A program made the translations under genes and the position numbers. From Chitinophagaceae bacterium (GTDB lineage Bacteria > Bacteroidota > Bacteroidia > Chitinophagales > UBA10324), in contig CANJII010000017.1 in assembly GCA_947474435.1 (NCBI GenBank), positions 2,580-66,579 on the forward strand: 64,000 bases of DNA. Reading direction: 5' to 3'. Under the pieces are notes generated by a model. The model did not search any database, was not told the origin of the DNA, and was given only the letters and a program-made list of their open reading frames with translations. Positions 34,961 to 54,036 of this stretch are shown in pieces. Position 1 is the stretch's first letter. Each line of letters begins with the position of its first letter.

Positions 34961-36256
34961 ATGAAAAAAAACTTAGTACTTGCAACCATCCTTTTTTGCA
35001 GTGTTATTGCCAATGCTCAGCAAACACTTAATCAGGTTATCGTTTTAAACGAAGGCCGGTATGATTACATTCTTCAACAAATAGATAAACCTGTGACCGT
35101 CGGAGCTTATAATCCGCAAACAAATGTGTATTCGGTTTTTGATACAATTGACAATGCCCGCTTTGCATCGGATGTAGTGGTTGATGATGCAAATATTTAT
35201 GTGTCGGCAGATAATACTTTGCTCAAGTATGATTTGAATACACATCAATTGCTTTCAACTCAAACGGTAAATGGCATTCGTAAACTGGCTTTGTGGAACG
35301 ATAAAATTTTATTGACTCGTGGAGAATATTTAACTACCTACGATTCTTACTTTCAGGTTTATAATAAATCTGATTTGAGTTTTGTTTATCAGTTAGATAC
35401 TTTGAATGGACCACATTATGCATCGGATGGAATTGTGATAAAAAATAACATTGCCTACATAGCCATTAACAATGGTTTCGTATGGGGTGGCGCTGTTGGA
35501 ATTGTTGGCCGGGTTGATTTAACTAACCAGAATTACATGCCTGAAATTTCTTTAGGAGCTGATGGAATAAATCCTGAAAATATTTTGAACGACAACAACA
35601 AAGTTTACACAGTGAACAACCGTGATTATTCTTTTGCGTCAATAAGCAGCATTGACCTTTCAAATTCAAATGTGGTGACTACTAATCTGAATAATGCAGG
35701 AGGTTGTCAGGGTTCTGCTTTTATCAATTCAAAAATTGCTTACCAGACTTATAACGAAAATTTTATTGGGCGATTTGATGTGAATGCACAAAGCATTAGC
35801 GATTCTCTTTTTATCAATCGTTCCATTTATGCTATGGCAACTGATGAGCTGAATCAAAATTTATATGCTTCCGAAACAGATTTCAGTTCGTATGGGTTGG
35901 TGTTGATTTATAATGAGAATGGAAATTTATTGAATGCATTTGTTGCCGGAGTTACTCCCGGAAAATTTGCCTTTGATTATCGCAATGCAAGTGGAATTAG
36001 CAATGCAACAATTAATTCACAAGTATTGGTTTTTCCAAATCCATCAACAGATCAATTAACCATTGCCTGTACAAATGCTGATGAAAAATCCACTATCACA
36101 ATTACTTCTATAGATGGAAAAATTCTTTACCAAAATAATGTGAGTGGAAAAAACTTTGTTCATCACATTGATATTTCAAAATATGCAGCAGGAACTTACC
36201 TGCTTTCTCTTCAATCGGAAAATAAAACTTCAGTACAGAAGGTTGTTAAATATTAA
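34961..36256 (+). CDS. secreted YncE/DUF5074-like beta-propeller protein with a T9SS type-A C-terminal domain, B12-riboswitch controlled
   Basis: Signal peptide MKKNLVLATILFCSVIANAQ. N-terminal VIVLNEGRYDY motif and strand-rich repeats. C-terminal VLVFPNPSTDQLTIACTN...AGTYLLSLQSENKTSVQKVVKY. Confidence 0.8.
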   Translation: MKKNLVLATILFCSVIANAQQTLNQVIVLNEGRYDYILQQIDKPVTVGAYNPQTNVYSVFDTIDNARFASDVVVDDANIYVSADNTLLKYDLNTHQLLSTQTVNGIRKLALWNDKILLTRGEYLTTYDSYFQVYNKSDLSFVYQLDTLNGPHYASDGIVIKNNIAYIAINNGFVWGGAVGIVGRVDLTNQNYMPEISLGADGINPENILNDNNKVYTVNNRDYSFASISSIDLSNSNVVTTNLNNAGGCQGSAFINSKIAYQTYNENFIGRFDVNAQSISDSLFINRSIYAMATDELNQNLYASETDFSSYGLVLIYNENGNLLNAFVAGVTPGKFAFDYRNASGISNATINSQVLVFPNPSTDQLTIACTNADEKSTITITSIDGKILYQNNVSGKNFVHHIDISKYAAGTYLLSLQSENKTSVQKVVKY

Positions 36257-38278: not shown

Positions 38279-39637
38279 TTACCTATTAAATTCCAATCTC
38301 TTCCCGAAATTATTTTCATTGAAAAGTCCGTGATGATAAACCAGATGACCATTCACAAATGTGTGAGTGATTCTGCTTTTGAATTTAAAACCTTCCAATG
38401 GCGACCAACCACATTTATAATAAATATTATCAGAATGAACTTCCCATTCTTTTTCCGGATTCACTAAAACCAAATCAGCAAAATATCCTTCGCGAATAAA
38501 TCCTCTTTCTTTTACACCAAAACAAATGGCAGGGTTATGCGCGGCTTTCTCTGCAATGTCAATCAGTCGCAATTGTTTGTTGTGCCAGAACTCCAATAAC
38601 ATATTTAACGAATGCTGAACAAGCGGTAAACCACTCGGAGCTTTAAAATAATTTATACTTCCATCGGGAGTGCGTATCATTTTTTCCTGCATGGTGTGTG
38701 GCGCATGGTCTGTTGCAAGAACATCAATGAAACCATCTTTCAATGCCTGCAATAATTTTGGTTTATGCTCCGGGCCCTTGATGGCAGGATTACATTTTAT
38801 CAATGTACCAAGGGTTGCATAATCATTACTATCGAACCACAGGTGATGAACACAAACTTCAGCAGTAATTCTTTTTTCCGCTAATGGAGTTATGTTTTCC
38901 AGCAATGCAATTTCATCCAGAGTTGAAAGATGAAAAATGTGTAAACGGCTGTTGTGTTTTTTAGCTAATTCAACGGCATACTTCGATGAATCATAACAGG
39001 CTTTCTCATCGCGGATAATTGGATGAAAGCGCATTGGAATGGCATCGCCATAATGCATGCGAAGCGGAATGGTGTTTTCTTTTATTCGCAAATCATCTTC
39101 GCAATGTGTGGCAATCAGAGTAGGAGAGTGCTTGAAAATATTTTCCAATGAATTGGGATTATCAACCACTAAATCTCCGGTTGATGAACCCATGAATATT
39201 TTTATTCCACAAACTTTTGATGGGTCAGTTTTTTTTATTTCCTCTAAATTGGAATTGGAAGTTCCGAGATAAAAAGAATAATTTGCCAGTGAATGAGTAC
39301 TTGCAATTTCATATTTCTGCTCTAACAATTCATGAGTGGTTGCCGGAGGAATGGTGTTCGGCATTTCCATAAATGAAGTTACACCACCTGCCACTGCAGC
39401 TTTTGCTTCAGTATAAATGTTTGCTTTTTGTGTCATTCCCGGTTCACGGAAATGAACCTGGTCGTCAATCAATCCGGGAAATAAATAATTTCCTTCCGCA
39501 TCAATTTCACGATGTAATGATTTGATGGAAATGTTTTCATCGATCTTTTCAATTCGTTCGCCATTAATTAAAAGGTCCTGCGTTTTTATTTCTCCTTCAT
39601 TAACAATCTGCGCATTGCGGATAATGGTGTAGCTCAT
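38279..39637 (-). CDS. pyrC: dihydroorotase (cyclic amidohydrolase family)
   Basis: GLIDDQVHFREPG (HxH metal site), ATDHAPH, 452 aa. Class-I dihydroorotase/allantoinase-like; exact substrate not provable from sequence. Confidence 0.78.
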   Translation of the reverse strand: MSYTIIRNAQIVNEGEIKTQDLLINGERIEKIDENISIKSLHREIDAEGNYLFPGLIDDQVHFREPGMTQKANIYTEAKAAVAGGVTSFMEMPNTIPPATTHELLEQKYEIASTHSLANYSFYLGTSNSNLEEIKKTDPSKVCGIKIFMGSSTGDLVVDNPNSLENIFKHSPTLIATHCEDDLRIKENTIPLRMHYGDAIPMRFHPIIRDEKACYDSSKYAVELAKKHNSRLHIFHLSTLDEIALLENITPLAEKRITAEVCVHHLWFDSNDYATLGTLIKCNPAIKGPEHKPKLLQALKDGFIDVLATDHAPHTMQEKMIRTPDGSINYFKAPSGLPLVQHSLNMLLEFWHNKQLRLIDIAEKAAHNPAICFGVKERGFIREGYFADLVLVNPEKEWEVHSDNIYYKCGWSPLEGFKFKSRITHTFVNGHLVYHHGLFNENNFGKRLEFNR

Positions 39638-39640
39638 AAT

Positions 39641-40627
39641 TTAGGTAGCAAGAATTTCCTGAATTCGTAAAAGATTTAAATTGATATCAAGGTTGTGCTT
39701 GGTGGCTTTTTCAAATGGGGTGAATTCAATTTCACGATGTATTACACCAACCATTTCATTTTCTTTCCCTTCAATTAATGCTTCAACTGCAGCAACACCT
39801 AATCTGCTGGCGAGCACTCTGTCCATGCAGGTTGGATTTCCACCACGCTGCATGTGACCGAGAATGGAAACGCGTGTGTCATAATAATCAAAATGTTCTT
39901 TTACCTGCTTTGCAATATCATATGCACCTCCTGATTCATCGCCTTCAGCAACCACCACAATGCAACTCGATTTATTTCTGTTCCAACCTTTTTCCAGAAT
40001 TGAAATCAGGTGCGGAATATCCGTTTTCGTTTCAGGAACCAGAATGGCTTCAGCGCCTCCGCCGATTCCGCTTCGCAATGCAATAAATCCGGCATCTCGT
40101 CCCATCACTTCAATAAAAAATAATCGGTTGTGCGAATCTGCCGTGTCGCGGATTTTATCAATTGCCTCCATGGCAGTATTGATTGCAGTATCGTATCCAA
40201 TGGTAAAATCGGTTCCGAATAAATCATTGTCAATGGTGCAGGGAACTCCGATGCTTGAAATGTTATGTCGCATACTGAATTCGAAACAACCACGAAATGT
40301 TCCATCACCACCGAGCGCCACCAATCCTTCAATATTGTGCTTCTTTAAATTTTCAGCTGCGAGATTCATTCCTTCTTCGGTTAGAAATCTTTTGCTGCGC
40401 GCAGTTTTTAAAATGGTTCCGCCACGCTGAATAATGTTGCTGACTGATTGCGAATTCATCTCAATCATATCGCCGTCAATCATTCCTTCAAATCCTCTTT
40501 TGATTCCGACTACCTCGAGGTTGTTAAAAATTGCTGTTCGTACCACAGCGCGAATGGCGGCATTCATACCCGGAGAATCGCCACCTGAAGTAAACACACC
40601 TATCCTCTTATTTTTTGTCATTCCCAT
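39641..40627 (-). CDS. pfkA: ATP-dependent 6-phosphofructokinase
   Basis: RIGVFTSGGDSPGMNAAIRAVV, GGDGTFRG, PCTIDNDL, MGRDAGFIAL, LGHMQRGG. The track start at 40642 is TTG; ATG options are 40627 and 40621. Confidence 0.9.
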   Translation of the reverse strand: MGMTKNKRIGVFTSGGDSPGMNAAIRAVVRTAIFNNLEVVGIKRGFEGMIDGDMIEMNSQSVSNIIQRGGTILKTARSKRFLTEEGMNLAAENLKKHNIEGLVALGGDGTFRGCFEFSMRHNISSIGVPCTIDNDLFGTDFTIGYDTAINTAMEAIDKIRDTADSHNRLFFIEVMGRDAGFIALRSGIGGGAEAILVPETKTDIPHLISILEKGWNRNKSSCIVVVAEGDESGGAYDIAKQVKEHFDYYDTRVSILGHMQRGGNPTCMDRVLASRLGVAAVEALIEGKENEMVGVIHREIEFTPFEKATKHNLDINLNLLRIQEILAT

Positions 40628-40703
40628 TTTTATTGGCGGCAAAGATTCAACTTCTGTTGTTAACTAAAAATGATTTTGATAACAATGATTTTAAAAAACA
40701 GAA

Positions 40704-41117
40704 TTATTGTTTCGCTTTTTCATATTGATACTTGGTGTGAATTAAATCAGCAGTTTGAAAATCCAGAACCAATTTTCCGTTCAACGAAGATTTGATGGTG
40801 AACATTTTTGTTTTCTTAGTTGCGTTCGCTGAAAAATAAATTTGTTTGTAAGCTTCAACTAATTTGTAAGCTCCAGTTTCTTCTTTTCCATTTACTACCA
40901 TCATATAATTTCCATCAGCAGTAATTTCCACACAATCATTTTTCTGAGTGGAATCGGCAGGCGTTAGAACTGCAAATTCTTCGGTTCCCTTGTACATCCA
41001 CTTGCCAACTATTCTGTCTTTTAACGGTGGAGTGGTTGATTGTGTTGGAGTTTCAGTTTGTGCAATTGCGTTCAAAGAAATAAAAATTATGGAAAGAAAA
41101 ACGATTTGCTGTTTCAT
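40704..41117 (-). CDS. secreted lipocalin-like hypothetical protein
   Basis: Signal peptide MKQQIVFLSIIFISLNAIAQ, a GKW motif and beta-rich composition, 137 aa. Confidence 0.5.
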   Translation of the reverse strand: MKQQIVFLSIIFISLNAIAQTETPTQSTTPPLKDRIVGKWMYKGTEEFAVLTPADSTQKNDCVEITADGNYMMVVNGKEETGAYKLVEAYKQIYFSANATKKTKMFTIKSSLNGKLVLDFQTADLIHTKYQYEKAKQ

Positions 41118-41204
41118 GGTGAAAGTGTTTGTTCAAATGTAAAAATGCAAATTGAAAAAGTATTTAACCGAAAGAAATTTTTTATTTGCGCAATCAATTA
41201 TTCA

Positions 41205-42050
41205 ATGACCATCAATTTTGCTTTTCAAAACTTACTCGATTCCATTTATGATTCTTATGAAAGAGATGAAGCGGAAATGATTGCACGAATTGTTTTTGAA
41301 GATGTGTTTGATTTGAAACCATCCAACATTGTGATTGATGCGGATAAAGAATTTTCATTGGAGAAAAATAAAAAGTTGAATCAGATAATCGTACGATTAA
41401 AAAATCATGAACCTGTCCAGTATGTAACCGGCAAAGCTTTTTTCTATGGAAATGAATATGAAGTAAACGCATCAGTTTTAATACCAAGACCAGAAACAGA
41501 AGAGCTTGTTCAATGGATTGTAGAATCAACTTCCAATAAAAAACAAAACATATTGGATATTGGAACAGGGAGTGGATGTATTGCAATTTCAATCAAAGAA
41601 AATTTTCCCGATGCAGATGTGTTAGCAACCGATATTAGTTCCAGTGCTTTGAAAATTGCAAAGAGAAATTCTGAATTATTAAAACAGCAAATTCATTTCG
41701 CTCAATCAGATATTCTAAGTTTAGAAAATCCATTCAATAGTCAATTTGATATTATAGTCAGTAATCCACCATACATTAGTGAAACTGAAAAATCATCTCT
41801 TGATAAAAATGTAATTGCTTTTGAGCCACATAAAGCATTGTTTGCTATTGGAGATGATGCATTAATTTTTTACAGAAGGATTATTGAGTTCGCAAAAAAA
41901 TTCCTCAATGATGGAGGTCAATTATTTTTTGAAGTGAATCAGCAATATGGAAATGATGTAGTAAAACTTCTGAAAGAAAATAATTTCAAAAATGGAGAAT
42001 TGAAAAAAGATATAAATAGAAATGACAGAATGGTTAGAGCGGTGAAATAG
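41205..42050 (+). CDS. prmC: peptide chain release factor N5-glutamine methyltransferase
   Basis: VLIPRPETEELV, LDIGTGSGCIAI, IVSNPPYI (NPPY). Start trimmed to the ATG at 41205, because the track ORF start (41040) overlaps the opposite-strand gene. Confidence 0.85.
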   Translation: MTINFAFQNLLDSIYDSYERDEAEMIARIVFEDVFDLKPSNIVIDADKEFSLEKNKKLNQIIVRLKNHEPVQYVTGKAFFYGNEYEVNASVLIPRPETEELVQWIVESTSNKKQNILDIGTGSGCIAISIKENFPDADVLATDISSSALKIAKRNSELLKQQIHFAQSDILSLENPFNSQFDIIVSNPPYISETEKSSLDKNVIAFEPHKALFAIGDDALIFYRRIIEFAKKFLNDGGQLFFEVNQQYGNDVVKLLKENNFKNGELKKDINRNDRMVRAVK

Positions 42051-42140
42051 TGTTTAACAATTAGTTATTAATAAATATAGAAGAGGAAAACTTTCGACCG
42101 AAATGAACTGGTTTCAGTTTTCCAATTACCGTATAATGAC

Positions 42141-42416
42141 TCAAGCTTCCACCGAAGTCATCAAATCAATTTCTTCGAGCACGGCACTTATAAATAAACA
42201 ATCTTCCATGGTACCGGAATAAACTTTTGCTTTTCCGTGGGTATGAATTTCTATGGCAATTGCTTCGGCGCGCTGAGTGGAACAATGAATGGCTCGTTTC
42301 AACTGGCGGATAACTTCTTCAAAAGTGTGCCAGTCATCATTATGAACAATCACGCTCGAACCATCAACATCAATATTGTAATCTTCTATCAGTTCTAATT
42401 CCTGTGTCTTTGTCAT
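42141..42416 (-). CDS. clpS: ATP-dependent Clp protease adaptor ClpS
   Basis: VIVHNDDWHTFEEVIRQLKRAIHCSTQRAEAIAIEIHTHGKAKVYSG, in a ~92-aa protein from the ATG at 42416. The longer track ORF is an upstream extension. Confidence 0.8.
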   Translation of the reverse strand: MTKTQELELIEDYNIDVDGSSVIVHNDDWHTFEEVIRQLKRAIHCSTQRAEAIAIEIHTHGKAKVYSGTMEDCLFISAVLEEIDLMTSVEA

Positions 42417-42559: not shown

Positions 42560-45028
42560 ATGAGTCCATTTTTTTACCTGATACCATGTTTCGGAATTGT
42601 TGCATTGCTGTTTACTGCCTGGAAATCGGCATGGGTTACAAAACAAGATGCGGGCAACGAACGCATGAAAGAAATTTCGAACTACATAGCCGAAGGTGCT
42701 ATGGCGTTTTTAAAAGCTGAATGGAAGGTGCTCGGCTACTTTGTAGTAATCGCCTCTATACTGCTTGCTGTTCTTGGTTATTCAAATCCTGATTCAAGTC
42801 CGCTGATTGCTGTTGCGTTTATAATCGGAGCTGTGTTTTCAGCAACCGCAGGATACATTGGTATGCGCATAGCAACTAAGGCAAATGTTCGTACTGCTCA
42901 TGCAGCGCGCACGAGTTTAGCAAAAGCATTGAATGTATCATTCACCGGAGGTTCAGTAATGGGAATGGGAGTTACCGGAATGGCGGTTCTTGGTTTGGGT
43001 GGTTTGTTCATTGGGTTATATTATATGTTCGCTGATGGCAACGGTGCTGAAGGTTTGCAGCGCGCTCTCGAAGTACTGACAGGTTTTTCATTGGGTGCCG
43101 AAAGCATTGCGCTTTTTGCCCGTGTAGGTGGAGGAATTTATACAAAAGCCGCCGATGTTGGCGCTGATTTGGTTGGAAAAGTAGAAGCAGGAATACCTGA
43201 AGATGATCCGCGCAATCCTGCAACCATTGCTGATAATGTGGGTGATAATGTTGGAGATGTTGCCGGTATGGGTGCCGATTTATTCGGTTCATTCGTTGCC
43301 ACCATTTTAGCAACTATGGTTTTAGGAAGAGAAATAACAGTTACCGATAATTTCGGTGGCTTATCTCCAATCCTTCTTCCAATGATGCTTTGCGGAATGG
43401 GAATTATTTTTTCTATGGTTTCAACTTTCTTCGTGAAAATAAAAGACACTGCTGAAGCAACAACTTCAGTGGTTCAAGGAGCATTGAATAAGGGAAACTG
43501 GGGAGCCATTATTCTCACAGCTATATCAAGTTATTTTTTAATCAACTGGCTAATGCCTGATACTTTAAATCTTCGCGGACATGAGTTTACCAAGATGGGA
43601 GTTTTCGGTGCTGTGATTCTTGGTTTGGTGGTTGGAACATTAATGAGTTTGATTACTGAATATTATACTTCAATGGGAAAGCGCCCTGTGAATTCTATTA
43701 TTCGTCAATCGTCAACAGGGCATGCTACAAATATTATTGCAGGTTTATCAGTGGGAATGGAATCGACTGTTGCGCCTATTATTGTTTTAGCTGCCGGAAT
43801 TTATGGTTCATTTATGTTCGCAGGATTGTATGGTGTAGCAATAGCCGCTGCCGGTATGATGGCAACTACTGCAATGCAATTAGCCATTGATGCTTTCGGA
43901 CCAATTGCTGATAATGCAGGAGGTATAGCAGAGATGAGTGAGTTGGAAAAAGAAGTTCGTGAAAAAACAGATATACTTGATGCTGTTGGTAATACAACCG
44001 CCGCAACCGGAAAAGGTTTTGCGATTGCGAGTGCCGCTTTAACATCGTTGGCTTTGTTCGCTGCGTTTGTAGGAATTGCCGGCATCAATAAAATTGATAT
44101 TTACCAGGCAGATGTATTAGCAGGGTTATTTATTGGTGCAATGATTCCGTTTATCTTTTCATCACTTGCTATTTCTGCAGTTGGTCAGGCTGCAATGGCA
44201 ATGGTGGAAGAAGTTCGTCGTCAGTTTCGCGAGATTCCCGGAATTATGGAAGGAACCGGAAAACCTGAGTATGATAAGTGCGTTGCTATTTCAACTCAGG
44301 CTTCATTGAGGAAAATGATGGCGCCGGGTGCAATAGCCATTACAGTTCCAATTATTGTGGGATTCACTTTTGGTGCTGAAGTGTTGGGTGGCATGTTAGC
44401 CGGTGTTACAGTATCAGGTGTGTTGATGGGAATGTTTCAATCAAATGCAGGTGGTGCATGGGACAATGCAAAAAAGAGTTTTGAAAAAGGCGCGGTGATT
44501 AACGGAGAAACTTTTTATAAAAAATCAGAACCACATAAAGCATCTGTTACCGGTGATACAGTTGGCGATCCATTCAAAGATACTTCAGGTCCATCCATGA
44601 ATATATTAATTAAGTTGATGTCAATTGTGAGTTTGGTTATTGCTCCATCAATAGGTCATCCGTTTATTAATTCAAGTGTGGGTAATGGAGGTGAAGATGC
44701 ATGCATGCACAAAATGGAATGTTGCGAACATGGAATGATGAGTGGCGAATGTGACAGTATGAAAATGAATTGCGAAGGTCACATGGGTATGAGAGGTTGC
44801 AAGGATGGAATGGATTCAACTCATTGTAAAGGTGAAATGGGAAATTGTGATGGAAAAGAGAAAATGGATTGCTGCAAGAATGGCGGTGAAATGAACAGCG
44901 GCTTGTGTTGCGCCGAATGTAAAGACAAATGCAAAACTGATTGTGCGAATGATGGCAAATGCCGTGAAGAAGGAAATAAAGGTTGTTGTAAAGAGGGTAA
45001 AAAAGAATGCTGCTCTAAAGAGAAATAG
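42560..45028 (+). CDS. hppA: membrane-bound (K+-dependent type) pyrophosphatase with a Cys/Met/His-rich C-terminal extension
   Basis: M-PPase motifs: [55 protein letters not shown] (Ala in GNTTAA indicates the K+-dependent class), [23 protein letters not shown]. About 16 hydrophobic segments, plus a 123-aa non-hydrophobic tail. Confidence 0.9.
44657..45025 (+). other. 123-aa Cys/Met/His-rich tail fused to the pyrophosphatase
   Basis: [123 protein letters not shown]. By my count it has 20 Cys, 12 Met and 5 His. Confidence 0.85.
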
Positions 45029-45058
45029 CAATCTGATTAATAAATTAAAAAATGAGAG

Positions 45059-45093
45059 CCGCTCTGAATTATTTTTTTCAGAGCGGTTTTTTT
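45059..45093 (+). terminator. rho-independent terminator after hppA (overlaps the 3' end of convergent tilS)
   Basis: CCGCTCTGAA-ttattttt-TTCAGAGCGG followed by TTTTTTT. Confidence 0.7.
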
Positions 45094-46406
45094 ATTACAG
45101 TCAAATATTGTTTGGTTGAATTTGAATGAGAAAATCGTTCGTCGGTTCGTAAACCAACAACACAAATAATTTTATCAGCAGTATCCTGAATCACCAATTG
45201 TTTTTCTTTTTCATGCAGAGGAATTTTTAAGTCAACAAAAAAATTACTCAGCTTTTTCTTTTTCATTTTCATTCCGGAAGGGTAGAAGTAGTCGCCAGGT
45301 TTCCAGGTGCGAAGTATGAGAGGGAATGAAATTTTATCAGCATCCAGTTCCAGTAAGCCATTTCGGTTGCGCGACGATGATTCCTTTATTTTTATTTCAA
45401 TTTCAAACTCTCCAATAGAAATATTTTGCGCTTTCTTTTTTTCAATCAGATAAACCGATGAGTCAGATATTATATTTTCGACAATAAAAAGTTTTTTCCG
45501 GTCTTTAATTATTCTATAAGTTAATGAAAGAAATTCTTTTCCGCTTTCACTTTTCAGAGAATCAAAAATCTGCTTCATAATTTTTTCTTCAAATCCATAA
45601 TCCTTCAACAGTTCAAATAAGATAGTTGCAGGTGCAGGCGAATGGAGCAATGCCGGAATATCAATTGACCATGTATTTTTATCCTGCTTCAATAATTTGT
45701 TCCCGAATTTATTAATACCGAAATCATATACTGCTTCAGCATCTTTGAAATGTTGAATGCTTGCGTCAAAGGATTCCTTAAATGAAGGATTAATTTCTTC
45801 GAGCAACGGAATCACTTTATGCCGAATCAGGTTTCGCTGGTAATCTGTTTTTTTATTCGAACTGTCTTCTCTGAATGCTATTTTATTTTTTCCAGCATAT
45901 TTTTTTATTTCATCTTTCCCTGTAAATAATAACGGACGAATAATTTTCCCTTGCTTCGACAAAATTCCATGCAATCCTTTTATTCCTGTTCCTTTTATTA
46001 AGTTCATTAAAACAGTTTCAACCGAATCATCTCGGTGATGAGCAGTCGCAATAAAATGATAACCATTTTTTTTTCTGATGTCTTCCAGCCAATCATACCG
46101 GAGTTTTCTTGCAGCCATTTGAATGGAAATATTTTCGGCCCGTGCAACTTCTTTTATGTCAAACCGCTCTGTAAAACATTCAACATTAAAAGTTGATGCC
46201 AGTTCTTTTACAAATTGTTCATCAGCATTTGATTCATCACCTCTTAATTGAAAATTGCAATGAGCAATGGCAAATGGTTGGTTCATGAGGGAAAATAAAT
46301 TAACCAGAACCATTGAATCAACTCCTCCGCTTACACCTGCTAAAACAGGAATCCCCTCAGAAAACAATTGATTTGATTGAATAAAATTTTTAAACTGATT
46401 AATCAT
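45078..46406 (-). CDS. tilS: tRNA(Ile)-lysidine synthase
   Basis: PP-loop VSGGVDSMVL, IATAHHRDDSVETVLMNL, 442 aa including a C-terminal TilS domain. Confidence 0.88.
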   Translation of the reverse strand: MINQFKNFIQSNQLFSEGIPVLAGVSGGVDSMVLVNLFSLMNQPFAIAHCNFQLRGDESNADEQFVKELASTFNVECFTERFDIKEVARAENISIQMAARKLRYDWLEDIRKKNGYHFIATAHHRDDSVETVLMNLIKGTGIKGLHGILSKQGKIIRPLLFTGKDEIKKYAGKNKIAFREDSSNKKTDYQRNLIRHKVIPLLEEINPSFKESFDASIQHFKDAEAVYDFGINKFGNKLLKQDKNTWSIDIPALLHSPAPATILFELLKDYGFEEKIMKQIFDSLKSESGKEFLSLTYRIIKDRKKLFIVENIISDSSVYLIEKKKAQNISIGEFEIEIKIKESSSRNRNGLLELDADKISFPLILRTWKPGDYFYPSGMKMKKKKLSNFFVDLKIPLHEKEKQLVIQDTADKIICVVGLRTDERFSHSNSTKQYLTVIKKPL

Positions 46407-46527: not shown

Positions 46528-47034
46528 ATGAAAAAACTAAGCATTTTAACAGCCGGCATCTTAATGGTGTTTTCATTGGCTATCGTAACTTTTTACACAT
46601 CTTGTACTGACCCTTGTAAAGATGTAACTTGTTTAAACGCCGGAACATGCGTTGAAGGTACTTGTAATTGTGCTTCTGGTTATGAAGGAACTGATTGCAG
46701 TACTGAAAACAGAGCTAAATTTAAAGGTGCATGGACTGCACAAGATGGTTGCAGCCTTTCAGGTTCTGCTTCTTATGGTGTAAGTGTAACTTCAGGATCT
46801 GGTATTTTTGATGTTAAAATCACTAATGTTTGGAATAGCTTCGTAAATGTTGTTAATGCAACTATCAGCGGAACAACCATTACAATTCCAACTCAAGAGC
46901 CTGATAATGATGGTTTCAGAGTTAGCGGAACTGGTACTATCAGCACTGATGGACATACTATTACCTGGAGCTATACAGTAACTGATACTGGTTCTGGTCT
47001 TTCTGATGTTTGCACATCAACCTGGACAAACTAA
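46528..47034 (+). CDS. lipoprotein with an EGF-like domain
   Basis: Signal peptide with a lipobox-like YTSC. CKDVTCLNAGTCVEGTCNCASGYEGTDC shows six-Cys EGF spacing. A beta-rich ~110-aa domain follows. Confidence 0.65.
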   Translation: MKKLSILTAGILMVFSLAIVTFYTSCTDPCKDVTCLNAGTCVEGTCNCASGYEGTDCSTENRAKFKGAWTAQDGCSLSGSASYGVSVTSGSGIFDVKITNVWNSFVNVVNATISGTTITIPTQEPDNDGFRVSGTGTISTDGHTITWSYTVTDTGSGLSDVCTSTWTN

Positions 47035-49846: not shown

Positions 49847-52800
49847 TTATTGCTTTAGCATCTTTCGAACTTCTCTCAGGTTCTGACCTATGATTACCAG
49901 ACTGTATAATCCCTGCGGGAAATCCTGTAGTTGGATGAGCAATTCCGTTTGCCCTTTTTCCATCGATTCAATTTTCATTTCTCTTCCGGCCATATCATAA
50001 ATGCGGATGTCATAAGTTTCTTCACCCGGATTGGAGAGTTCCAGATGAATAATATCAGATGTAGGATTTGGAAAAAGACCAAAGTCTAAATTATTTTCAT
50101 TTTCCATAACTTCCATTCTCGCAGCCGCTGATGTTGTGAAATTATAAGAAGCAGAAAATGCAGAAAGATTAGTTCCGGCTGCATCACATTGTGTTTGAAT
50201 TTGAATTTCATATTGTGTAGTTGGCATTAATCCGCTAACGGTTGCAGCTGTATTATTTCCATTGGTTGATTGCAAAGTCCAAAGCGTTGAACCAACGGGT
50301 CTGGTTCTTAAATTATATTTGTAAGCACCTGTCACACTTCCCCACATGGCAATTGTACTTGTTGAATTTGTATTCATAAAACTTGCTGTAGAAGTTACAT
50401 TGCAGTTTGAACTTGTATTCGTAAGAATTACACTTTGTGTTTTAATGCAGCCACCTGAAGAAGTTACCGTAATCGTAAATGTTCCAGCTGCAACAGTAGT
50501 AAGGTCTTCAGTTGTAGCACCATTACTCCACAGATAAGTATATGGAGTTTGTCCGCCACTTACTGTAATATTTATTGCTCCGTTTGATTGCCCGCTTGTT
50601 GGATTGGTAGAAGTATATGTTATAGAAGGCAATGCATTTACAGTAATTATTTTGGTAGAAGTTTTTGCACAACCATTCGCAGCTGTACCTGTAATTGAAT
50701 AAGTGATAGCAGAAACCGGATTTGCAACTACACTTGAACCTGAAGTTAAATTTAATCCGGTTGATGGTGACCATGAGTATGTTGATGCACCGCTTGCTGT
50801 TAAATTCGTACTTGTTCCGGAACATGTTGTTGAATTACCACTTACTGAAATTGTTGGAGATGCATTTACAAAAAGCGCGACGGTTTTTGATGCGTTGCAT
50901 GCTCCTGAAGTTCCGGATATTGTGTAAGTGATATTTGAAATTGGAGTGGAAGAAACTGTTGCACCCATTGTTGTATTCAATGATGTGGATGGCGACCAAG
51001 TATAAGTTGAAGCACCAGTAACTGTTAGTGAGGTTGAACTGCCTGAACATATTGAAGATGCACCGCTCACACTTAAAACCAAACCCGATGAAACGGTAAC
51101 TGCAATAGTTTTTGTATTAGTGCAACCATTCGATGTTCCAATTACAGTGTATGTAGTTGATGAAACAGGATTTGCATTTACACTTGAACCGGTAGTAATA
51201 TTTAATCCGGTTGATGGTGACCATGAATATGTAGTTGCTCCACTTCCGGTTAATGTTGTTGAAGAACCAGTACACATTGCAATATTGCCAGATGTTGAAA
51301 CAATTGGCGATGCGTTAACGGTTATAGTTTTGGCAAAAGATTTTGTGCATCCGTTCGCAGCCGTTCCTGTAATTGAATAAGTGATAGTAGAAATTGGAGT
51401 AGCTGAAACCATAGTTCCTGTTGTAACCGAAAGACCTGTTGATGGTGACCATGTGTATGTGATTGCTCCGCTCGCAGTTAAATTAACACTGCTTCCTGAA
51501 CAGGTAGAATTATTTCCGCTTACAGAAACTGTTGGTAAAGCATTCACAGAAACCGAAACTGTTTTGGTTGAAGTGCATCCATTGCTCCCTGTAATTGTGT
51601 AAGTGATGTTGGATGTTGGATTTGCCATAACACTTGAACCAGTTGTAACATTTAAAGCTGTTGAGGGTGACCATGTGTAAGTAGTTGCACCACCTGCTGT
51701 TAGTGTGGTTGATGTGCCTGAACAAATGGTTGTATTGACTGATGATGTAATTGTTGGAATTGAATTGACAGCCAAAGTAAAATTTTGAATTTTAGTACAA
51801 CCATTTGCAGTTCCTGAAATTGCATAAGTGAGTGATGAAGTTGGATTAGCTATAACTGTTGTGCCTGAAGTTAAATTTAAACCTGTTGCAGGCGACCATG
51901 AATAAGTTGTTGCTCCGTTTACAGTTAATGTTGTTGATGAGCCATTGCAAATTGCATTGCTTCCTGAAATAGTTAATGTTGGTAATGTTATTACAATAAC
52001 GCTTTTTGTAGAAGAACTACTACAGCCATTTGTAGTTCCTGTTATGGTGTAAGTAATACTTGAAGTTGGCGAAGCCGTTGCACTTACTGCAGTGGTTGAA
52101 TTCAAAGCTGTTGAAGGCGACCATGAATAGGTTGTTGCTCCGCTTGCAGTAATTGTGGTTGAAGTTCCTGAACAAATACTTGTACTCGTTGGAGAAACTG
52201 TAACTACAGGCAATGCTTTCACCTGAATGGTTTGCGAAGCTGATTGAGAATTATAAGTATAGTTAATTGTAAAAGTTCCAGCTCCTGCAATTGCCGGATT
52301 AAATATTCCGGCACTCACACCTGTTCCTGAATAAGTTCCTCCGGTAGGCGAACCGCCTGTCAATGTAAATGAAGATGCATTCACACAAACAGGATTGAAA
52401 GTTGAAAGTGTAACTGTTGTGGTTCCGCTTTTATATATAGTCCATGAAACAGAATTAGTTGGAACTAATTTTTTTACCAATGAAGTTGTGTCCCAAACAT
52501 TGAAAGTAAGCGTGTGAATTCCTGTAATTAAATTATTTCCGATAGAAGTGTAGGATAGAATATTTGTACCGACAACAACTCCATCTAATAGCCATTGTGA
52601 TTTTATTGTGTTTGGAATTGTTTGAATAATGGTTGAAGAAAAGTTTTGTGAACCTCCGCTCGCAATATTTATTGTTGAAGTATTTACCGGTGAATAACTA
52701 TTCACCAGATTAGTCATGTTCAGAAATGACACAATCAATTCTTCCTTACAAATACTGCAGAAAGATTGACCAAGAGCTAACATTTTACAATTACACATCG

Positions 52801-53566
52801 GGCGATACCAAGTGCTAGGACAATAATTCGAACCAAGATATAATCCAACTGAAGTGCAATTTGTAGCAGCCGGAGTTGGTATTGGCATGCCACCCGGAAT
52901 CCATGCTTTCCATTTTATCAGAGTTGGATTTGTTTCCATTGTGCAGTTTGGTTTTTCAATGGTACCGCAACCGCCGGAAGTATATTCATCAGTGAGGTTT
53001 GCAATGGAATGACCGAGTTCATGAATAATAATTTCAGAACTTGCATTGTTGATTGTGCAACATGGATAAGTTCCGCCTGAACCTCCATAATAAGTTGAGT
53101 TGGCAACCACAATTGCTTTATTGTAAGCAGGGAAATTTGCAAGCAAAACATTTTGTATAGCTGTTGTATTTGTGGCAACTACTAACCGATGAATATTTCC
53201 ATAATCGAATTTGCTTCCGAAATAAGATACAGTACCTGAAGATGGAACATTTGGATTTGCCGATGCACAATCAGTAGCAGTTACCTGATGCATGATTCCT
53301 GATGTTGATGAGTTTACCTGAATGGCATAAACATTAAATAGATTTTTATATGAATTGTATGGCGAGGTGCTAAATATTGTTGTCGTAATTGTATTCACCT
53401 GTGTAATAAAATTTGTTTGTTCTGCCGAAGTGAAGCCATCAGCTAAAAAAACCAAATCAAAGTGATTGCTTGAAGGACCGTTATAAAGTATTGTTGTAAC
53501 AGGAAATGTTTGCGCAGAAATTTTTCCGGAAATAAAAATCAGCAACAGAAGAATAAGTTTTTTCAT
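49847..53566 (-). CDS. multidomain M64-like (IgA-peptidase family) metallopeptidase fused to adhesin repeats, an SprB-like repeat, FN3 and a T9SS type-A C-terminal domain
   Basis: Signal peptide MKKLILLLLIFISGKISAQ. M64-type catalytic region: FDLVFLADGFTSAEQ, STYYGGSGG, IIHELGHSIANLTDEY. Seven ~77-aa repeats of the 2050-8829 type. GAINITVSGGQTPYTYLWSNG is SprB-like. The FN3-like module contains YKYNLRTRPVGS...TQYEIQIQTQC. C-terminal LFPNPTSDIIHLELS...GLYSLVIIG. The track start at 53572 is GTG; the ATG is at 53566. Confidence 0.85.
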   Translation of the reverse strand: MKKLILLLLIFISGKISAQTFPVTTILYNGPSSNHFDLVFLADGFTSAEQTNFITQVNTITTTIFSTSPYNSYKNLFNVYAIQVNSSTSGIMHQVTATDCASANPNVPSSGTVSYFGSKFDYGNIHRLVVATNTTAIQNVLLANFPAYNKAIVVANSTYYGGSGGTYPCCTINNASSEIIIHELGHSIANLTDEYTSGGCGTIEKPNCTMETNPTLIKWKAWIPGGMPIPTPAATNCTSVGLYLGSNYCPSTWYRPMCNCKMLALGQSFCSICKEELIVSFLNMTNLVNSYSPVNTSTINIASGGSQNFSSTIIQTIPNTIKSQWLLDGVVVGTNILSYTSIGNNLITGIHTLTFNVWDTTSLVKKLVPTNSVSWTIYKSGTTTVTLSTFNPVCVNASSFTLTGGSPTGGTYSGTGVSAGIFNPAIAGAGTFTINYTYNSQSASQTIQVKALPVVTVSPTSTSICSGTSTTITASGATTYSWSPSTALNSTTAVSATASPTSSITYTITGTTNGCSSSSTKSVIVITLPTLTISGSNAICNGSSTTLTVNGATTYSWSPATGLNLTSGTTVIANPTSSLTYAISGTANGCTKIQNFTLAVNSIPTITSSVNTTICSGTSTTLTAGGATTYTWSPSTALNVTTGSSVMANPTSNITYTITGSNGCTSTKTVSVSVNALPTVSVSGNNSTCSGSSVNLTASGAITYTWSPSTGLSVTTGTMVSATPISTITYSITGTAANGCTKSFAKTITVNASPIVSTSGNIAMCTGSSTTLTGSGATTYSWSPSTGLNITTGSSVNANPVSSTTYTVIGTSNGCTNTKTIAVTVSSGLVLSVSGASSICSGSSTSLTVTGASTYTWSPSTSLNTTMGATVSSTPISNITYTISGTSGACNASKTVALFVNASPTISVSGNSTTCSGTSTNLTASGASTYSWSPSTGLNLTSGSSVVANPVSAITYSITGTAANGCAKTSTKIITVNALPSITYTSTNPTSGQSNGAINITVSGGQTPYTYLWSNGATTEDLTTVAAGTFTITVTSSGGCIKTQSVILTNTSSNCNVTSTASFMNTNSTSTIAMWGSVTGAYKYNLRTRPVGSTLWTLQSTNGNNTAATVSGLMPTTQYEIQIQTQCDAAGTNLSAFSASYNFTTSAAARMEVMENENNLDFGLFPNPTSDIIHLELSNPGEETYDIRIYDMAGREMKIESMEKGQTELLIQLQDFPQGLYSLVIIGQNLREVRKMLKQ
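50630..52220 (-). repeat. seven tandem ~77-aa coding repeats of the same family as the 3311-8540 array
   Basis: ICSGTSTTLTA.GATTY(S/T)WSPST(G/A)LN.T.G..V.A.P.S.ITY.I.GT..NGC. appears seven times. Nucleotide-level similarity is visible, for example TTTAATCCGGTTGATGGTGACCATGA at both ~50753 and ~51203. Confidence 0.85.
53009..53023 (-). other. HExxH motif of the M64-like peptidase
   Basis: The plus-strand sequence atgaccgagttcatg is the reverse complement of the codons for HELGH. Confidence 0.8.
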
Positions 53567-54036
53567 TTCCACAAATTGTTTTGAAAGGTGAATAATGAAA
53601 TCAGAATCTGTTTCCCGTCAGCATCAATTTGATAAACCTTAATCGAAGCAGCATTTTTCAAAACTGGAAATTTCACCAGCAAAGTTGCCTGGGGTTCAAT
53701 GTTTTTATAGTGACCGAGTTCACCTTTTTCATTTGAATATTCATAATTTATAAAAGATGGATTATCCTGTTTAACAGAATAAATAATTTTTCCATCAGCA
53801 TCTGTAATATCAAATTGAATAATTCCTTCATCGTTTAATGGATGTGTATCAGCAGAAATTTTCTCATTAATAATTTTTGATTGAAGTACTTGACTGCTTT
53901 CCATTTTTTTGGAAGAAGTATTTGTTAAAACACTGAACTGAATAATTTCAGTTTGTTCTGAATCAATTCTGCTTTGTGCATTCACTTCAAAAAAAAGTGG
54001 AAGCATGAACAGAAGGAGCACAATTATTTTATTCAT
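53563..54036 (-). CDS. small secreted protein, translationally coupled to the M64-like peptidase gene
   Basis: From the ATG at 54036: MNKIIVLLLFMLPLFFEVNAQ signal peptide, ~157 aa, beta-rich. Its TGA stop overlaps the downstream ATG as ATGA (53563-53566). Confidence 0.6.
   Translation of the reverse strand: MNKIIVLLLFMLPLFFEVNAQSRIDSEQTEIIQFSVLTNTSSKKMESSQVLQSKIINEKISADTHPLNDEGIIQFDITDADGKIIYSVKQDNPSFINYEYSNEKGELGHYKNIEPQATLLVKFPVLKNAASIKVYQIDADGKQILISLFTFQNNLWK

Follow-up and report, generated by a model that had tools for sequence, protein, structure and literature searches.

A membrane pyrophosphatase from a Chitinophagaceae bacterium with a cysteine- and methionine-rich C-terminal tail of probable periplasmic location

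A 64,000-nucleotide stretch of DNA from Chitinophagaceae bacterium (assembly GCA_947474435.1, contig CANJII010000017.1, positions 2,580-66,579 of the forward strand), which we refer to as the window, encodes a membrane pyrophosphatase (M-PPase) whose last 123 residues are rich in cysteine and methionine. Judged by its sequence, this open reading frame (ORF) is a complete M-PPase with an added C-terminal tail. The fusion is genuine and is not an artefact. A periplasmic location of the tail is well supported by what is known of the helix that precedes it and by the domains found at the same position in related pumps, and substitution counts indicate that the tail is under purifying selection. 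We tentatively propose that it binds soft metals on the outward side of the cytoplasmic membrane. The coordinates of the features discussed here are collected in Table 1.

The pump core is unremarkable in its extent. The Pfam profile H_PPase (PF03030) matches residues 13-694 over its entire length (profile positions 1-645 of 645) with 898 bits against a cut-off of 29.7, and the NCBIfam equivalog model NF001955, which is named 'sodium-translocating pyrophosphatase', reaches 1244.6 bits (cut-off 1059). The catalytic motifs of M-PPases are found in the translation. In addition, the protein aligns with the solved enzymes of Vigna radiata (Vr, 4a01; E = 2e-172) and Thermotoga maritima (Tm, 4av3; E = 1e-162), and these alignments span residues 74-754 of 766 and 14-727 of 735, respectively. 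An AlphaFold2 (AF2) model of the full-length protein, which is of low confidence, predicts sixteen long helices. The end of the canonical domain is therefore placed at residue 694 by the Pfam profile and at residue 697 by the two solved enzymes, which terminate at most about 12 residues past the equivalent of that position. The tail (residues 700-822) continues in frame directly after the sequence SLVIAPSIG, which ends at residue 699.

The same architecture is found repeatedly in public databases. One database protein (P0001) is identical to the window pump, and seven others (P0002-P0008) are 81-93% identical to it, are 814-844 aa long, and all carry a homologous tail. A back-translated search with the most conserved stretch of the tail, [DN]G[KN]C[RK]E..., recovered 8 species-representative genomes and 2 metagenome contigs from the Joint Genome Institute (JGI), and every one of these matches is linked to an M-PPase. 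The 8 genomes are all metagenome-assembled genomes (MAGs) assigned to Chitinophagales or Chitinophagaceae. Wherever a contig among these 8 genomes and 2 JGI contigs extends far enough, the match begins in transmembrane helix 16 (TM16) of a full-length M-PPase ORF. The tail-bearing contigs come from different studies and assemblers, are up to 203 kb long, and differ in their gene neighbourhoods. The source of one of the tail-bearing MAGs is Lake Biwa (LBMAG). From their names, we take the MAG named nzgw to represent groundwater and those whose names begin with RH-, TrH- and MaH- to represent European lake or reservoir samples.

Read support for the junction, where the preliminary description of this DNA had allowed for a frameshift or an assembly fusion, was judged from Logan unitigs. 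Between 85 and 98% of the 31-mers of positions 44300-45150 are present in 12 metagenome runs that three studies obtained from fresh water or lakes, and no RNA-seq runs holding the stretch were found. In four lake runs, the unitigs break at the 32-mer 44630-44661, at the end of TM16. The short-read graph is thus ambiguous right at the junction, which is likely a spot prone to chimeric joins in short-read assemblies, and this counts in favour of an assembly chimera or a frameshift. This 32-mer is deeper than its flanks (95 versus 35-43 in run X1), presumably because it is common to co-occurring related Chitinophagales strains. However, the unitig that carries the tail itself begins within TM16, eight codons inside the helix, and contains no indels or joints. 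Its depth is similar to that of the core unitig in three of the four runs (34.6 versus 42.8, 19.8 versus 21.7 and 8.8 versus 8.3) and is lower in run X7 (9.2 versus 22.2). Moreover, the fusion is found again in eight or more species-level MAGs that originate from separate studies and assemblers, on contigs of up to 203 kb, with a synonymous divergence (dS) above 0.5 between them. The junction is real, and we regard it as extremely improbable that the tail is an artefact or, given the low rate of amino acid replacement described below (0.05-0.09 relative to synonymous change), a neutral low-complexity read-through without function.

The composition of the tail is strongly biased. It contains 20 Cys, 19 Gly, 17 Lys, 14 Glu, 12 Met, 9 Asp and 5 His residues, one each of Phe, Ile, Val and Leu, and neither Trp nor Tyr, and the length and the Cys, Met and His counts of the preliminary description were exact. 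The only aromatic residue, the Phe, is located in the linker described below, and aliphatic and aromatic residues amount to four in total. Cys makes up 16.3% and Met 10% of the tail. When the roughly 17,300 residues of the other ORFs in the window (C 1.4%, M 2.1%, H 1.8%) are taken as the background, the probability of finding at least 20 Cys among 123 residues is 1e-15, and that of finding at least 12 Met is 1e-5. The maximum Kyte-Doolittle hydropathy over 19 residues is only -0.08, and thus the tail has no membrane segment, as had been noticed from the sequence at the outset.

Two parts can be distinguished within the tail. It starts with a 14-residue Gly/Ser/Asn linker, and the remainder of the N-terminal half consists of Met/His/Cys-rich C-x-G-x-M units of about 8-9 residues each. 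No tandem repeat was found in the tail at the DNA level, where these units are degenerate. The C-terminal module follows the pattern D-CC-x10-CC-x2-C-x3-C-x3-C-x5-C-x7-CC-x6-CC-SKEK within a matrix of Lys, Glu, Gly and Asn. Over its whole length, the tail has five CC pairs and three Cx3C spacings, neither of which is above composition-preserving shuffles (P = 0.16 and 0.61, respectively), along with no CxC and a single CxxC (C85-x2-C88) that forms part of a Cys ladder. AF2 assigns the tail a predicted local distance difference test (pLDDT) score of 23-35 in the full-length model, whose overall mean is 54.8, and a mean of 38.4 when the tail is modelled alone, with almost no helix. These models were built on shallow alignments, the full-length model is poor overall, and the quality of both is insufficient for a fold search. 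As modelled, the tail is predicted to lack a fold and to be intrinsically unstructured without metal.

An alignment of nine tails of the window clade (alignment A1) has 13 invariant columns, all of which are located in tail residues 72-118, and seven of them are Cys (C72, C84, C92, C96, C102, C111 and C118). The last 52 or so residues, with the spacing of their Cys residues, are nearly invariant in these nine tails. The first 70 or so are more variable, and orthologues differ there by whole C-x-G-x-M units that have been gained or lost. The ratio of nonsynonymous to synonymous substitution rates (dN/dS), obtained from Nei-Gojobori counts against a 93% identical orthologue (L001), is 0.021 for the core and 0.071 for the tail, with 0.086 for the N-terminal and 0.052 for the C-terminal half of the tail. 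In more distant orthologue pairs, the synonymous sites of the tail are saturated and the Cys pattern is nevertheless kept. These values indicate that the tail is under purifying selection and argue against random low-complexity drift, which the preliminary description had entertained. The number of Cys residues in P0001 to P0008 is 20, 22, 21, 18, 16, 20, 17 and 19, respectively, and one Cys of a CC pair is lost in P0003, P0005, P0006 and P0008. The count is odd in three of these eight close orthologues (P0003, P0007 and P0008), and likewise in 18 of the 37 Cys-rich tails of the wider survey presented below.

In solved M-PPases, hydrolysis takes place at a cytoplasmic centre, with the gate and the exit channel on the side of the periplasm or lumen (PMC5150537). 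The tail of the window pump starts directly after TM16, at the exit-channel end of this inner-ring helix, 14 residues past the gate residue K685. Because the gate and the exit channel lie on the periplasmic side, these 14 residues, which are hydrophobic, would lead outward. Furthermore, an OmpA family domain follows TM16 in 7 of the 119 closest relatives, among which P0042 and P0114 match PF00691 with 70 and 52 bits, respectively. OmpA_C domains bind peptidoglycan in the periplasm, and their occurrence at the same position thus provides independent support for a periplasmic tail. The periplasmic placement given in the preliminary description is therefore very probably correct. A 17th helix has reportedly been observed in the M-PPase of Streptomyces coelicolor. 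A cytoplasmic tail reached via such a helix is ruled out for the window pump, wherein no hydrophobic segment follows TM16.

Sequence searches did not connect the tail to any known family. No Pfam or NCBIfam family matched it at E <= 1, which is also true for three other types of Cys-rich tail, and no PDB sequence matched it at E <= 10. A profile built from the nine tails gave 0 matches at E <= 1e-3 among 1.84 billion cluster representatives, and thus neither a free-standing copy nor another carrier was detected in this set, where clustering at 50% identity has probably merged the pumps with a tail into representatives that lack one and where the biased composition reduces sensitivity. A word-indexed protein search with the tail alone returned nothing and is uninformative, as it missed even the identical P0001. 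The tail sequence family therefore appears to be limited to one small freshwater clade of Chitinophagales, with the tail of P0010 as its sole detectable distant relative.

The C-termini of related pumps were compared among the 119 closest M-PPases (70-100% core identity), a set that is biased to query-like tails. Short Cys-free tails of 22-45 aa are present in 50 of them, and Cys-rich tails with at least 5 Cys and a length of 56-145 aa are present in 37. The others carry an OmpA domain (6 pumps), a Cys-rich stretch followed by an OmpA domain (1, P0114), a Cys-free domain of about 100 aa with the marker GNLSVELKNGELSINGKKQ (8), another domain with the marker LKRDGL... (4), or other tails (13). 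Thus, about one third of the set has Cys/Met-rich tails, which is an upper estimate given this bias. In a neighbour-joining tree of the pump cores, Cys-rich clades are interleaved with short-tailed clades. When the tails of the window clade were compared by hhalign with seven other Cys-rich tail groups, the scores were no better than those of reversed-sequence controls, with the exception of P0010 (72% versus 5% for the reversed control) and, marginally, P0011/12 (17% versus 0.6%). A common ancestry of all Cys-rich tails was considered as well, and it is not borne out by this comparison.

Although most of them are not detectably related in sequence to the window tail, the Cys-rich tails are alike in composition (K 13%, C 12%, E 11%, G 9%, M 7.5% and H 4%). 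In a set of 67 long tails, the fraction of Cys correlates with that of Met (rho 0.53) and of His (rho 0.62), and the mean Met content is 7.2% in Cys-rich tails versus 3.1% in Cys-poor tails. Certain spacings are also favoured or avoided. Relative to composition-preserving shuffles of the 37 Cys-rich tails, CC (79 observed, 55 expected), Cx3C (78, 53) and [CM]x3[CM] (200, 142) are enriched by approximately 1.4-1.5-fold, whereas CxC (4, 54) and CxxC (13, 53) are strongly depleted. The occurrence of unrelated Cys/Met-rich tails in sister clades suggests selection on composition and not on fold. Chitinophagales M-PPases carry interchangeable periplasmic C-terminal modules, which include unrelated Cys/Met-rich tails, small beta-rich domains and OmpA_C.

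Several of these modules have features of their own. The more common Cys-free domain (on P0041, P0044, P0055, P0064, P0076, P0082, P0083 and P0108) has the markers ...DDNGNLSVELKNGELSINGKKQ...DLNFSIKIEDK, and the less common one (on P0047, P0074, P0087 and P0088) has the markers ...LKRDGLL...INGTKQAE...DFDITIK. Neither of these two periplasmic domains reaches a Pfam cut-off, and both look like small beta-rich domains. There is also a clade (P0013, P0017, P0019, P0022, P0024, P0048, P0049 and P0052) whose tails begin with GLHK or GLHD, are approximately 75-83 aa long, and are poor in Cys, wherein each tail has a single CC pair. The contexts of these pairs are ACCAKP, ACCVAP, ACCVKP, ACCTDG, GCCING, SCCMMP and ECCSDP, which suggests that the di-Cys unit itself is a selected element. 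In P0114 (941 aa), the stretch between TM16 and the OmpA family domain is about 100 residues long. Some taxonomic labels in this material look wrong. The contig that encodes P0010 (L012, CAYRJA010000009.1) is labelled 'uncultured Bifidobacteriaceae bacterium' despite its Chitinophagales-type pump, and the MAGs whose names begin with TrH- and MaH- (L007 and L009), apparently from lake samples, are labelled 'Chitinophaga pinensis'.

Our preferred view is that the tail is tethered to the membrane and binds soft metals in the periplasm, with Cu(I) as the most likely of these metals and Zn or Cd as possible ones. We do not go so far as to call this assignment probable. It is based on five observations. 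Cys, Met and, more weakly, His are enriched together, and all three are soft-metal ligands. The tail has no hydrophobic core and no predicted fold in its apo form. Its composition is conserved across tails of unrelated sequence. The Cys counts vary and are often odd, which a fixed disulfide network would hardly explain. Finally, the CC and Cx3C spacings and the Met-rich units have precedents at copper sites in oxidising compartments, which include the CC of Cox17, the Cx3C of Sco, the Cys-lined helices of copper storage proteins (Csp), and the sites of CusF, CopC and PcoE. Csp proteins that store copper through Cys thiolates are indeed found in the periplasm (PMC12510493, PMC9484137).

In this view, the gene encodes a normal K+-dependent pump, probably for protons, whose TM16 continues on the periplasmic side into an unstructured tail with many thiol, thioether and imidazole side chains. 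As a homodimer, the pump would be an abundant inner-membrane anchor for two tails, which together offer 40 Cys, 24 Met and 10 His. These tails would be exposed on the outer surface of the cytoplasmic membrane, beside the mouths of the ion exit channels. Metal might be bound via the thiolates of the CC and Cx3C units with the assistance of nearby Met and His residues, with Cu(I) as the leading candidate and with Zn(II) or Cd(II) as further possibilities, and the tail could thereby serve as a tethered periplasmic metal buffer or sink. Metal binding is plausible, and this binding, the identity of the metal, and any feedback on pumping are all inferred.

Unfortunately, a number of points weigh against a metal-binding function. 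The enrichment of His in the window tail is weak when taken alone and is not significant (P = 0.08 for at least 5 His). CxC and CxxC, the spacings typical of classical metallothioneins, hardly occur in the 37 Cys-rich tails. In an aerobic lake bacterium, the periplasm is an oxidising compartment, and so the 20 Cys residues may be largely disulfide-bonded. The lack of a fold in the AF2 models constitutes weak evidence, and the Cys-rich stretch that separates TM16 from the OmpA domain in P0114 also fits a role as no more than a linker or stalk. Genes for metal resistance or metal homeostasis were not found near the pump, either in the window or in three relatives whose gene neighbourhoods differ. 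In addition, we know of no functional link between H+ pumping driven by pyrophosphate (PPi) and metals.

It is possible, though rather unlikely, that the tail forms a periplasmic stalk or mini-domain held together by disulfide cross-links, in which Dsb proteins oxidise the Cys residues to yield a compact knot without metal. Such a knot could stabilise the dimer, shield or shape the exit mouth, form a rigid spacer, or provide an attachment to the envelope like the OmpA_C tails of sister pumps. The oxidising periplasmic compartment, the strongly conserved Cys pattern of the C-terminal 52 residues, the even number of Cys in the window tail, and the placement of the Cys-rich segment of P0114 as a linker ahead of OmpA_C are all in keeping with this idea. 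The depletion of CxC and CxxC together with the enrichment of Cx3C also fits the twin-Cx3C/Cx9C disulfide motifs of helix hairpins, which occur in the mitochondrial intermembrane space. However, a disulfide-rich domain is characterised by an even and invariant number of Cys with fixed pairing, whereas the tails of the 81-93% identical orthologues contain anywhere from 16 to 22 Cys, and single members of CC pairs disappear without a compensating loss. A fixed disulfide network is therefore disfavoured by these variable and often odd counts. It would also leave the co-enrichment of Met and His unexplained, and it is not easily reconciled with the coming and going of whole repeat units in the N-terminal half or with the failure of AF2 to find a confident fold. 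A partly disulfide-bonded core would nonetheless be compatible with the near-invariant C-terminal module.

The position of the tail, 14 residues after the gate residue K685 of an inner-ring helix, invites the proposal that it is a regulatory redox or metal sensor, whose oxidation or metal loading alters the opening of the exit channel via TM16. Purifying selection on the tail and the existence of regulatory Cys/His-rich C-terminal extensions on other pumps, such as HMA4 (PMC6255694), are consistent with this proposal. However, sister pumps tolerate no module, an OmpA domain or a beta-rich domain at the same site while their cores are still 70-80% identical, which argues for a permissive display point and not for a tuned regulatory interface. 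Moreover, the first 14 residues of the tail constitute a Gly/Ser/Asn linker, and there is no redox-type CxxC. We thus find a sensor improbable. Equally, it would be decidedly improbable for the tail to act as a metal- or redox-responsive gate, such that periplasmic loading with Cu(I) or Zn, or the oxidation of thiols, switches H+ pumping on or off. One further possibility is that the tail is a sacrificial thiol/thioether antioxidant or electrophile sink, which shields the outer face of the membrane from oxidants in lake water such as peroxide, hypochlorite or photochemical products. The high Cys and Met content, the exposed compartment, and the origin of the sequences from lake-water metagenomes and MAGs are all in keeping with this possibility. 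Yet a bulk scavenger would not need the conserved Cys spacing of the C-terminal module, no linked Msr or Dsb repair genes are present within the window, and several of the source MAGs are apparently from deep water (hypolimnion), as read from 'hypo' in names such as LBMAG_Bacteroidetes_hypo.bin2. This last explanation appears quite implausible.

If the tail does bind soft metals, it would do so outside the families in which such binding is familiar. It belongs to none of the metallothionein, Csp, thioredoxin-like and OmpA families, and it may still work as a metal-thiolate binder. Metallothioneins (SmtA/BmtA of PF02069, MymT and the eukaryotic proteins) share with the tail a high Cys content, a Lys/Gly/Glu matrix and the absence of a metal-free fold. 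They are small free proteins with 15-30% Cys and no aromatic residues. The tail has 16.3% Cys and one Phe, but it is an extension of 123 residues on a membrane protein of 822 aa. Unlike metallothioneins, it is nearly without the clustered CxC and CxxC motifs, is rich in Met, is very probably periplasmic, and has no metallothionein match in Pfam or NCBIfam (E <= 1) or in the PDB (E <= 10). Thus, the term 'metallothionein-like' used in the preliminary description is apt for the composition and fails for the motifs and for the profiles, as neither a metallothionein nor a Csp model is matched. The alternative term 'redox-active' found no specific support, since thioredoxin-like proteins have an active-site CxxC within a fold, and the tail has one CxxC outside such a context, no predicted fold and no profile match.

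The N-terminal half of the tail is reminiscent of another group of proteins. CusF, CopC, PcoE, and the octapeptide repeats of Pseudomonas syringae CopA and CopB use Met and His as Cu(I) ligands in MxGM- and HxxM-like units, which resemble the units of this half. Csp1-type proteins (PMC9484137, PMC12510493) are likewise extracytoplasmic and use thiolate ligands for Cu(I) with Cx3C-type spacing. A Csp protein is recognised by a Cys-lined four-helix bundle and a profile match, and the tail, with no Pfam match and almost no helix in AF2, has only the Cx3C spacing in common with it. Differences from all of these Csp, Cop and Cus proteins are that the tail matches no profile, is not predicted to form a helical bundle, is tethered to a pump, and combines Cys with Met. 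The closest functional analogue on a pump is the C-terminal extension of the plant Zn pump HMA4, which has di-Cys motifs, binds Zn with nanomolar affinity and is needed for function (PMC6255694). The extensions of the P1B-ATPases HMA4 and HMA2, with di-Cys motifs and a His stretch, are long unstructured C-terminal additions with several CC pairs, as is the tail. However, the HMA4 extension is cytosolic and binds the transported metal, whereas the tail is predicted to be periplasmic on a pump that moves H+ (or Na+), and there is no sequence homology between them.

In the literature that could be searched, no M-PPase with a Cys-rich module is described, which agrees with the preliminary description, whose author knew of no such enzyme. 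This novelty concerns the kind of module and does not extend to the existence of a C-terminal extension, because an OmpA-like one, the only addition of this sort encountered in that literature, has been reported on the M-PPase of Paucibacter sp. KCTC 42545 and its relatives, with a role 'to be elucidated' (PeerJ 2024 review, PMC11210485). The OmpA-tailed M-PPases (that of Paucibacter sp. KCTC 42545 and P0042, P0075, P0085, P0093, P0106, P0110 and P0114) resemble the window pump in that an extra periplasmic module is located immediately after TM16 of an otherwise canonical pump. They differ from it in that the window tail has no PF00691 match and no hydrophobic core, and contains 16% Cys and 10% Met.

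The residues that determine the class of the pump also merit attention. K+-dependent M-PPases have Ala at position 12.46 and Gly or Ala at position 12.49 (GNTTAAxGK), and Lys and Thr occupy the two positions in K+-independent enzymes, a rule that is said to originate from Belogurov and Lahti (2002). The window pump has A481 at 12.46 and G484 at 12.49, and its earlier placement in the K+-dependent class is borne out. A gap-free alignment to Vr 4a01 assigns the selectivity residues E181, G243 and A247 to positions 5.43, 6.53 and 6.57, where the Vr enzyme has S235, G297 and E301, respectively. Enzymes of the Flavobacterium johnsoniae type have reportedly been studied by Luoto et al. (2011) and Tsai et al. 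(2014). The K+-dependent H+-PPase of F. johnsoniae has an unusual signature, in which a semi-conserved Glu occupies 5.43 and is missing from both 6.53 and 6.57 (PMC10897367, PMC6882861). On this signature, H+ pumping is predicted, and the window pump is probably a K+-dependent H+ pump of the F. johnsoniae type. Na+-PPases and Na+,H+-PPases carry a Glu at 6.53, where the window pump has G243. Given this residue and the Glu at 5.43, the label 'sodium-translocating' of NF001955 is probably wrong on ion specificity in this case. Both E181 and G243 are invariant in all 38 aligned Chitinophagales relatives (alignment A2). The window pump and the F. johnsoniae enzyme share a full-length PF03030 core, 16 transmembrane helices, A12.46/G12.49 and a Bacteroidota host, and the signature suggests a likeness in ion specificity as well. 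However, the window pump has its Cys/Met-rich tail of predicted periplasmic location, whereas described enzymes end soon after TM16.

A hairpin located downstream of the stop codon is a bidirectional terminator common to the M-PPase gene and the convergent tilS gene. Its 10-bp stem includes 6 G-C pairs, and T-runs flank it on both strands. A terminator after the stop codon had already been noted in the preliminary description and is evident in the sequence, and a terminator scan assigned the hairpin to the minus strand, on which it would terminate tilS. The neighbours of the pump in the window encode phosphofructokinase (PFK), an amidohydrolase, PrmC, ClpS, TilS and a polyprenyl synthase, and the pumps of three relatives that were compared have different neighbours. 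The order of the upstream genes, which are those for the dihydroorotase-like amidohydrolase, PFK, PrmC and ClpS (38279-42416), is shared with the 90% identical relative in GCA_038326325.1 (L004 1136-5856), and is absent at the P0002 and P0008 loci. If the PFK is of the PPi-dependent type, it would have a functional tie to PPi metabolism.

Other genes farther from the pump are of separate interest. The ORF at 46528-47034 (plus strand) encodes 168 aa with a hydrophobic N-terminus followed by a Cys residue (...FYTSCTDPC...), and has a weak match to EGF-like/teneurin-EGF domains (E = 5e-6) that is under the gathering score. It may encode a lipoprotein with an EGF-like disulfide domain, which would be unusual in bacteria. 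Genes for proteins with a Por_Secre_tail domain flank the region at 34961-36256 (plus strand) and 49847-53572 (minus strand), and one of these products is a 1241-aa protein that resembles M64 peptidases. The Por_Secre_tail sorting domain marks cargo of type IX secretion, and the presence of these proteins fits the Bacteroidota origin of the window.

Table 1. Features of the M-PPase gene and its surroundings, with positions counted from the first nucleotide of the window
Feature	Position	Strand	Basis
M-PPase ORF, 822 aa	42560..45028	+	ORF translation
M-PPase core, residues 1-699, 16 transmembrane helices	42560..44656	+	PF03030, NF001955, Vr/Tm alignment, AF2 secondary structure
Selectivity residues E181, G243, A247	43100-43102, 43286-43288, 43298-43300	+	alignment to Vr 4a01
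TM16, approximately residues 663-699, putative periplasmic end SLVIAPSIG	44546..44656	+	hydropathy segment 676-700, AF2 helix 663-706
TM16 gate residue N681 (16.46)	44600-44602	+	sequence, PMC5150537
TM16 gate residue K685 (16.50)	44612-44614	+	sequence, PMC5150537
Tail, N-terminal half, variable, residues 700-770	44657..44869	+	A1 alignment, four-way alignment
Tail, C-terminal module, conserved, residues 771-822, 12 Cys	44870..45025	+	A1 invariant columns, dN/dS
Stop codon TAG	45026..45028	+	sequence
Hairpin terminator, stem CCGCTCTGAA/TTCAGAGCGG at 45059-45086, then TTTTTTT	45059..45095	both	sequence, terminator scan
tilS, convergent to the M-PPase gene	45078-46406	-	PF01171, PF11734

M-PPases are usually treated as self-contained pumps of 16 helices without accessory domains. 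The comparison of Chitinophagales enzymes indicates that their periplasmic C-terminus is a hot spot for the acquisition of modules, and the type of tail found in the window appears to have been kept under purifying selection in at least 8 lineages from lakes and groundwater. Proteins with this tail are already present in public databases, where they are annotated just as (sodium-translocating) pyrophosphatases. Under the name 'sodium-translocating pyrophosphatase', neither the E5.43 signature of a proton pump nor the added module can be recognised. If the tail binds Cu or Zn, abundant freshwater bacteria would have in it a metal buffer of a new type, tethered in the periplasm, and it would be a natural case of a metal-binding peptide displayed on a pump. 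A regulatory effect on the pump would instead make it the first control element or regulatory domain known outside the cytoplasm for any M-PPase. Should the tail indeed act as a gate, the unrelated Cys/Met-rich tails of Chitinophagales would be repeated inventions of the same control.

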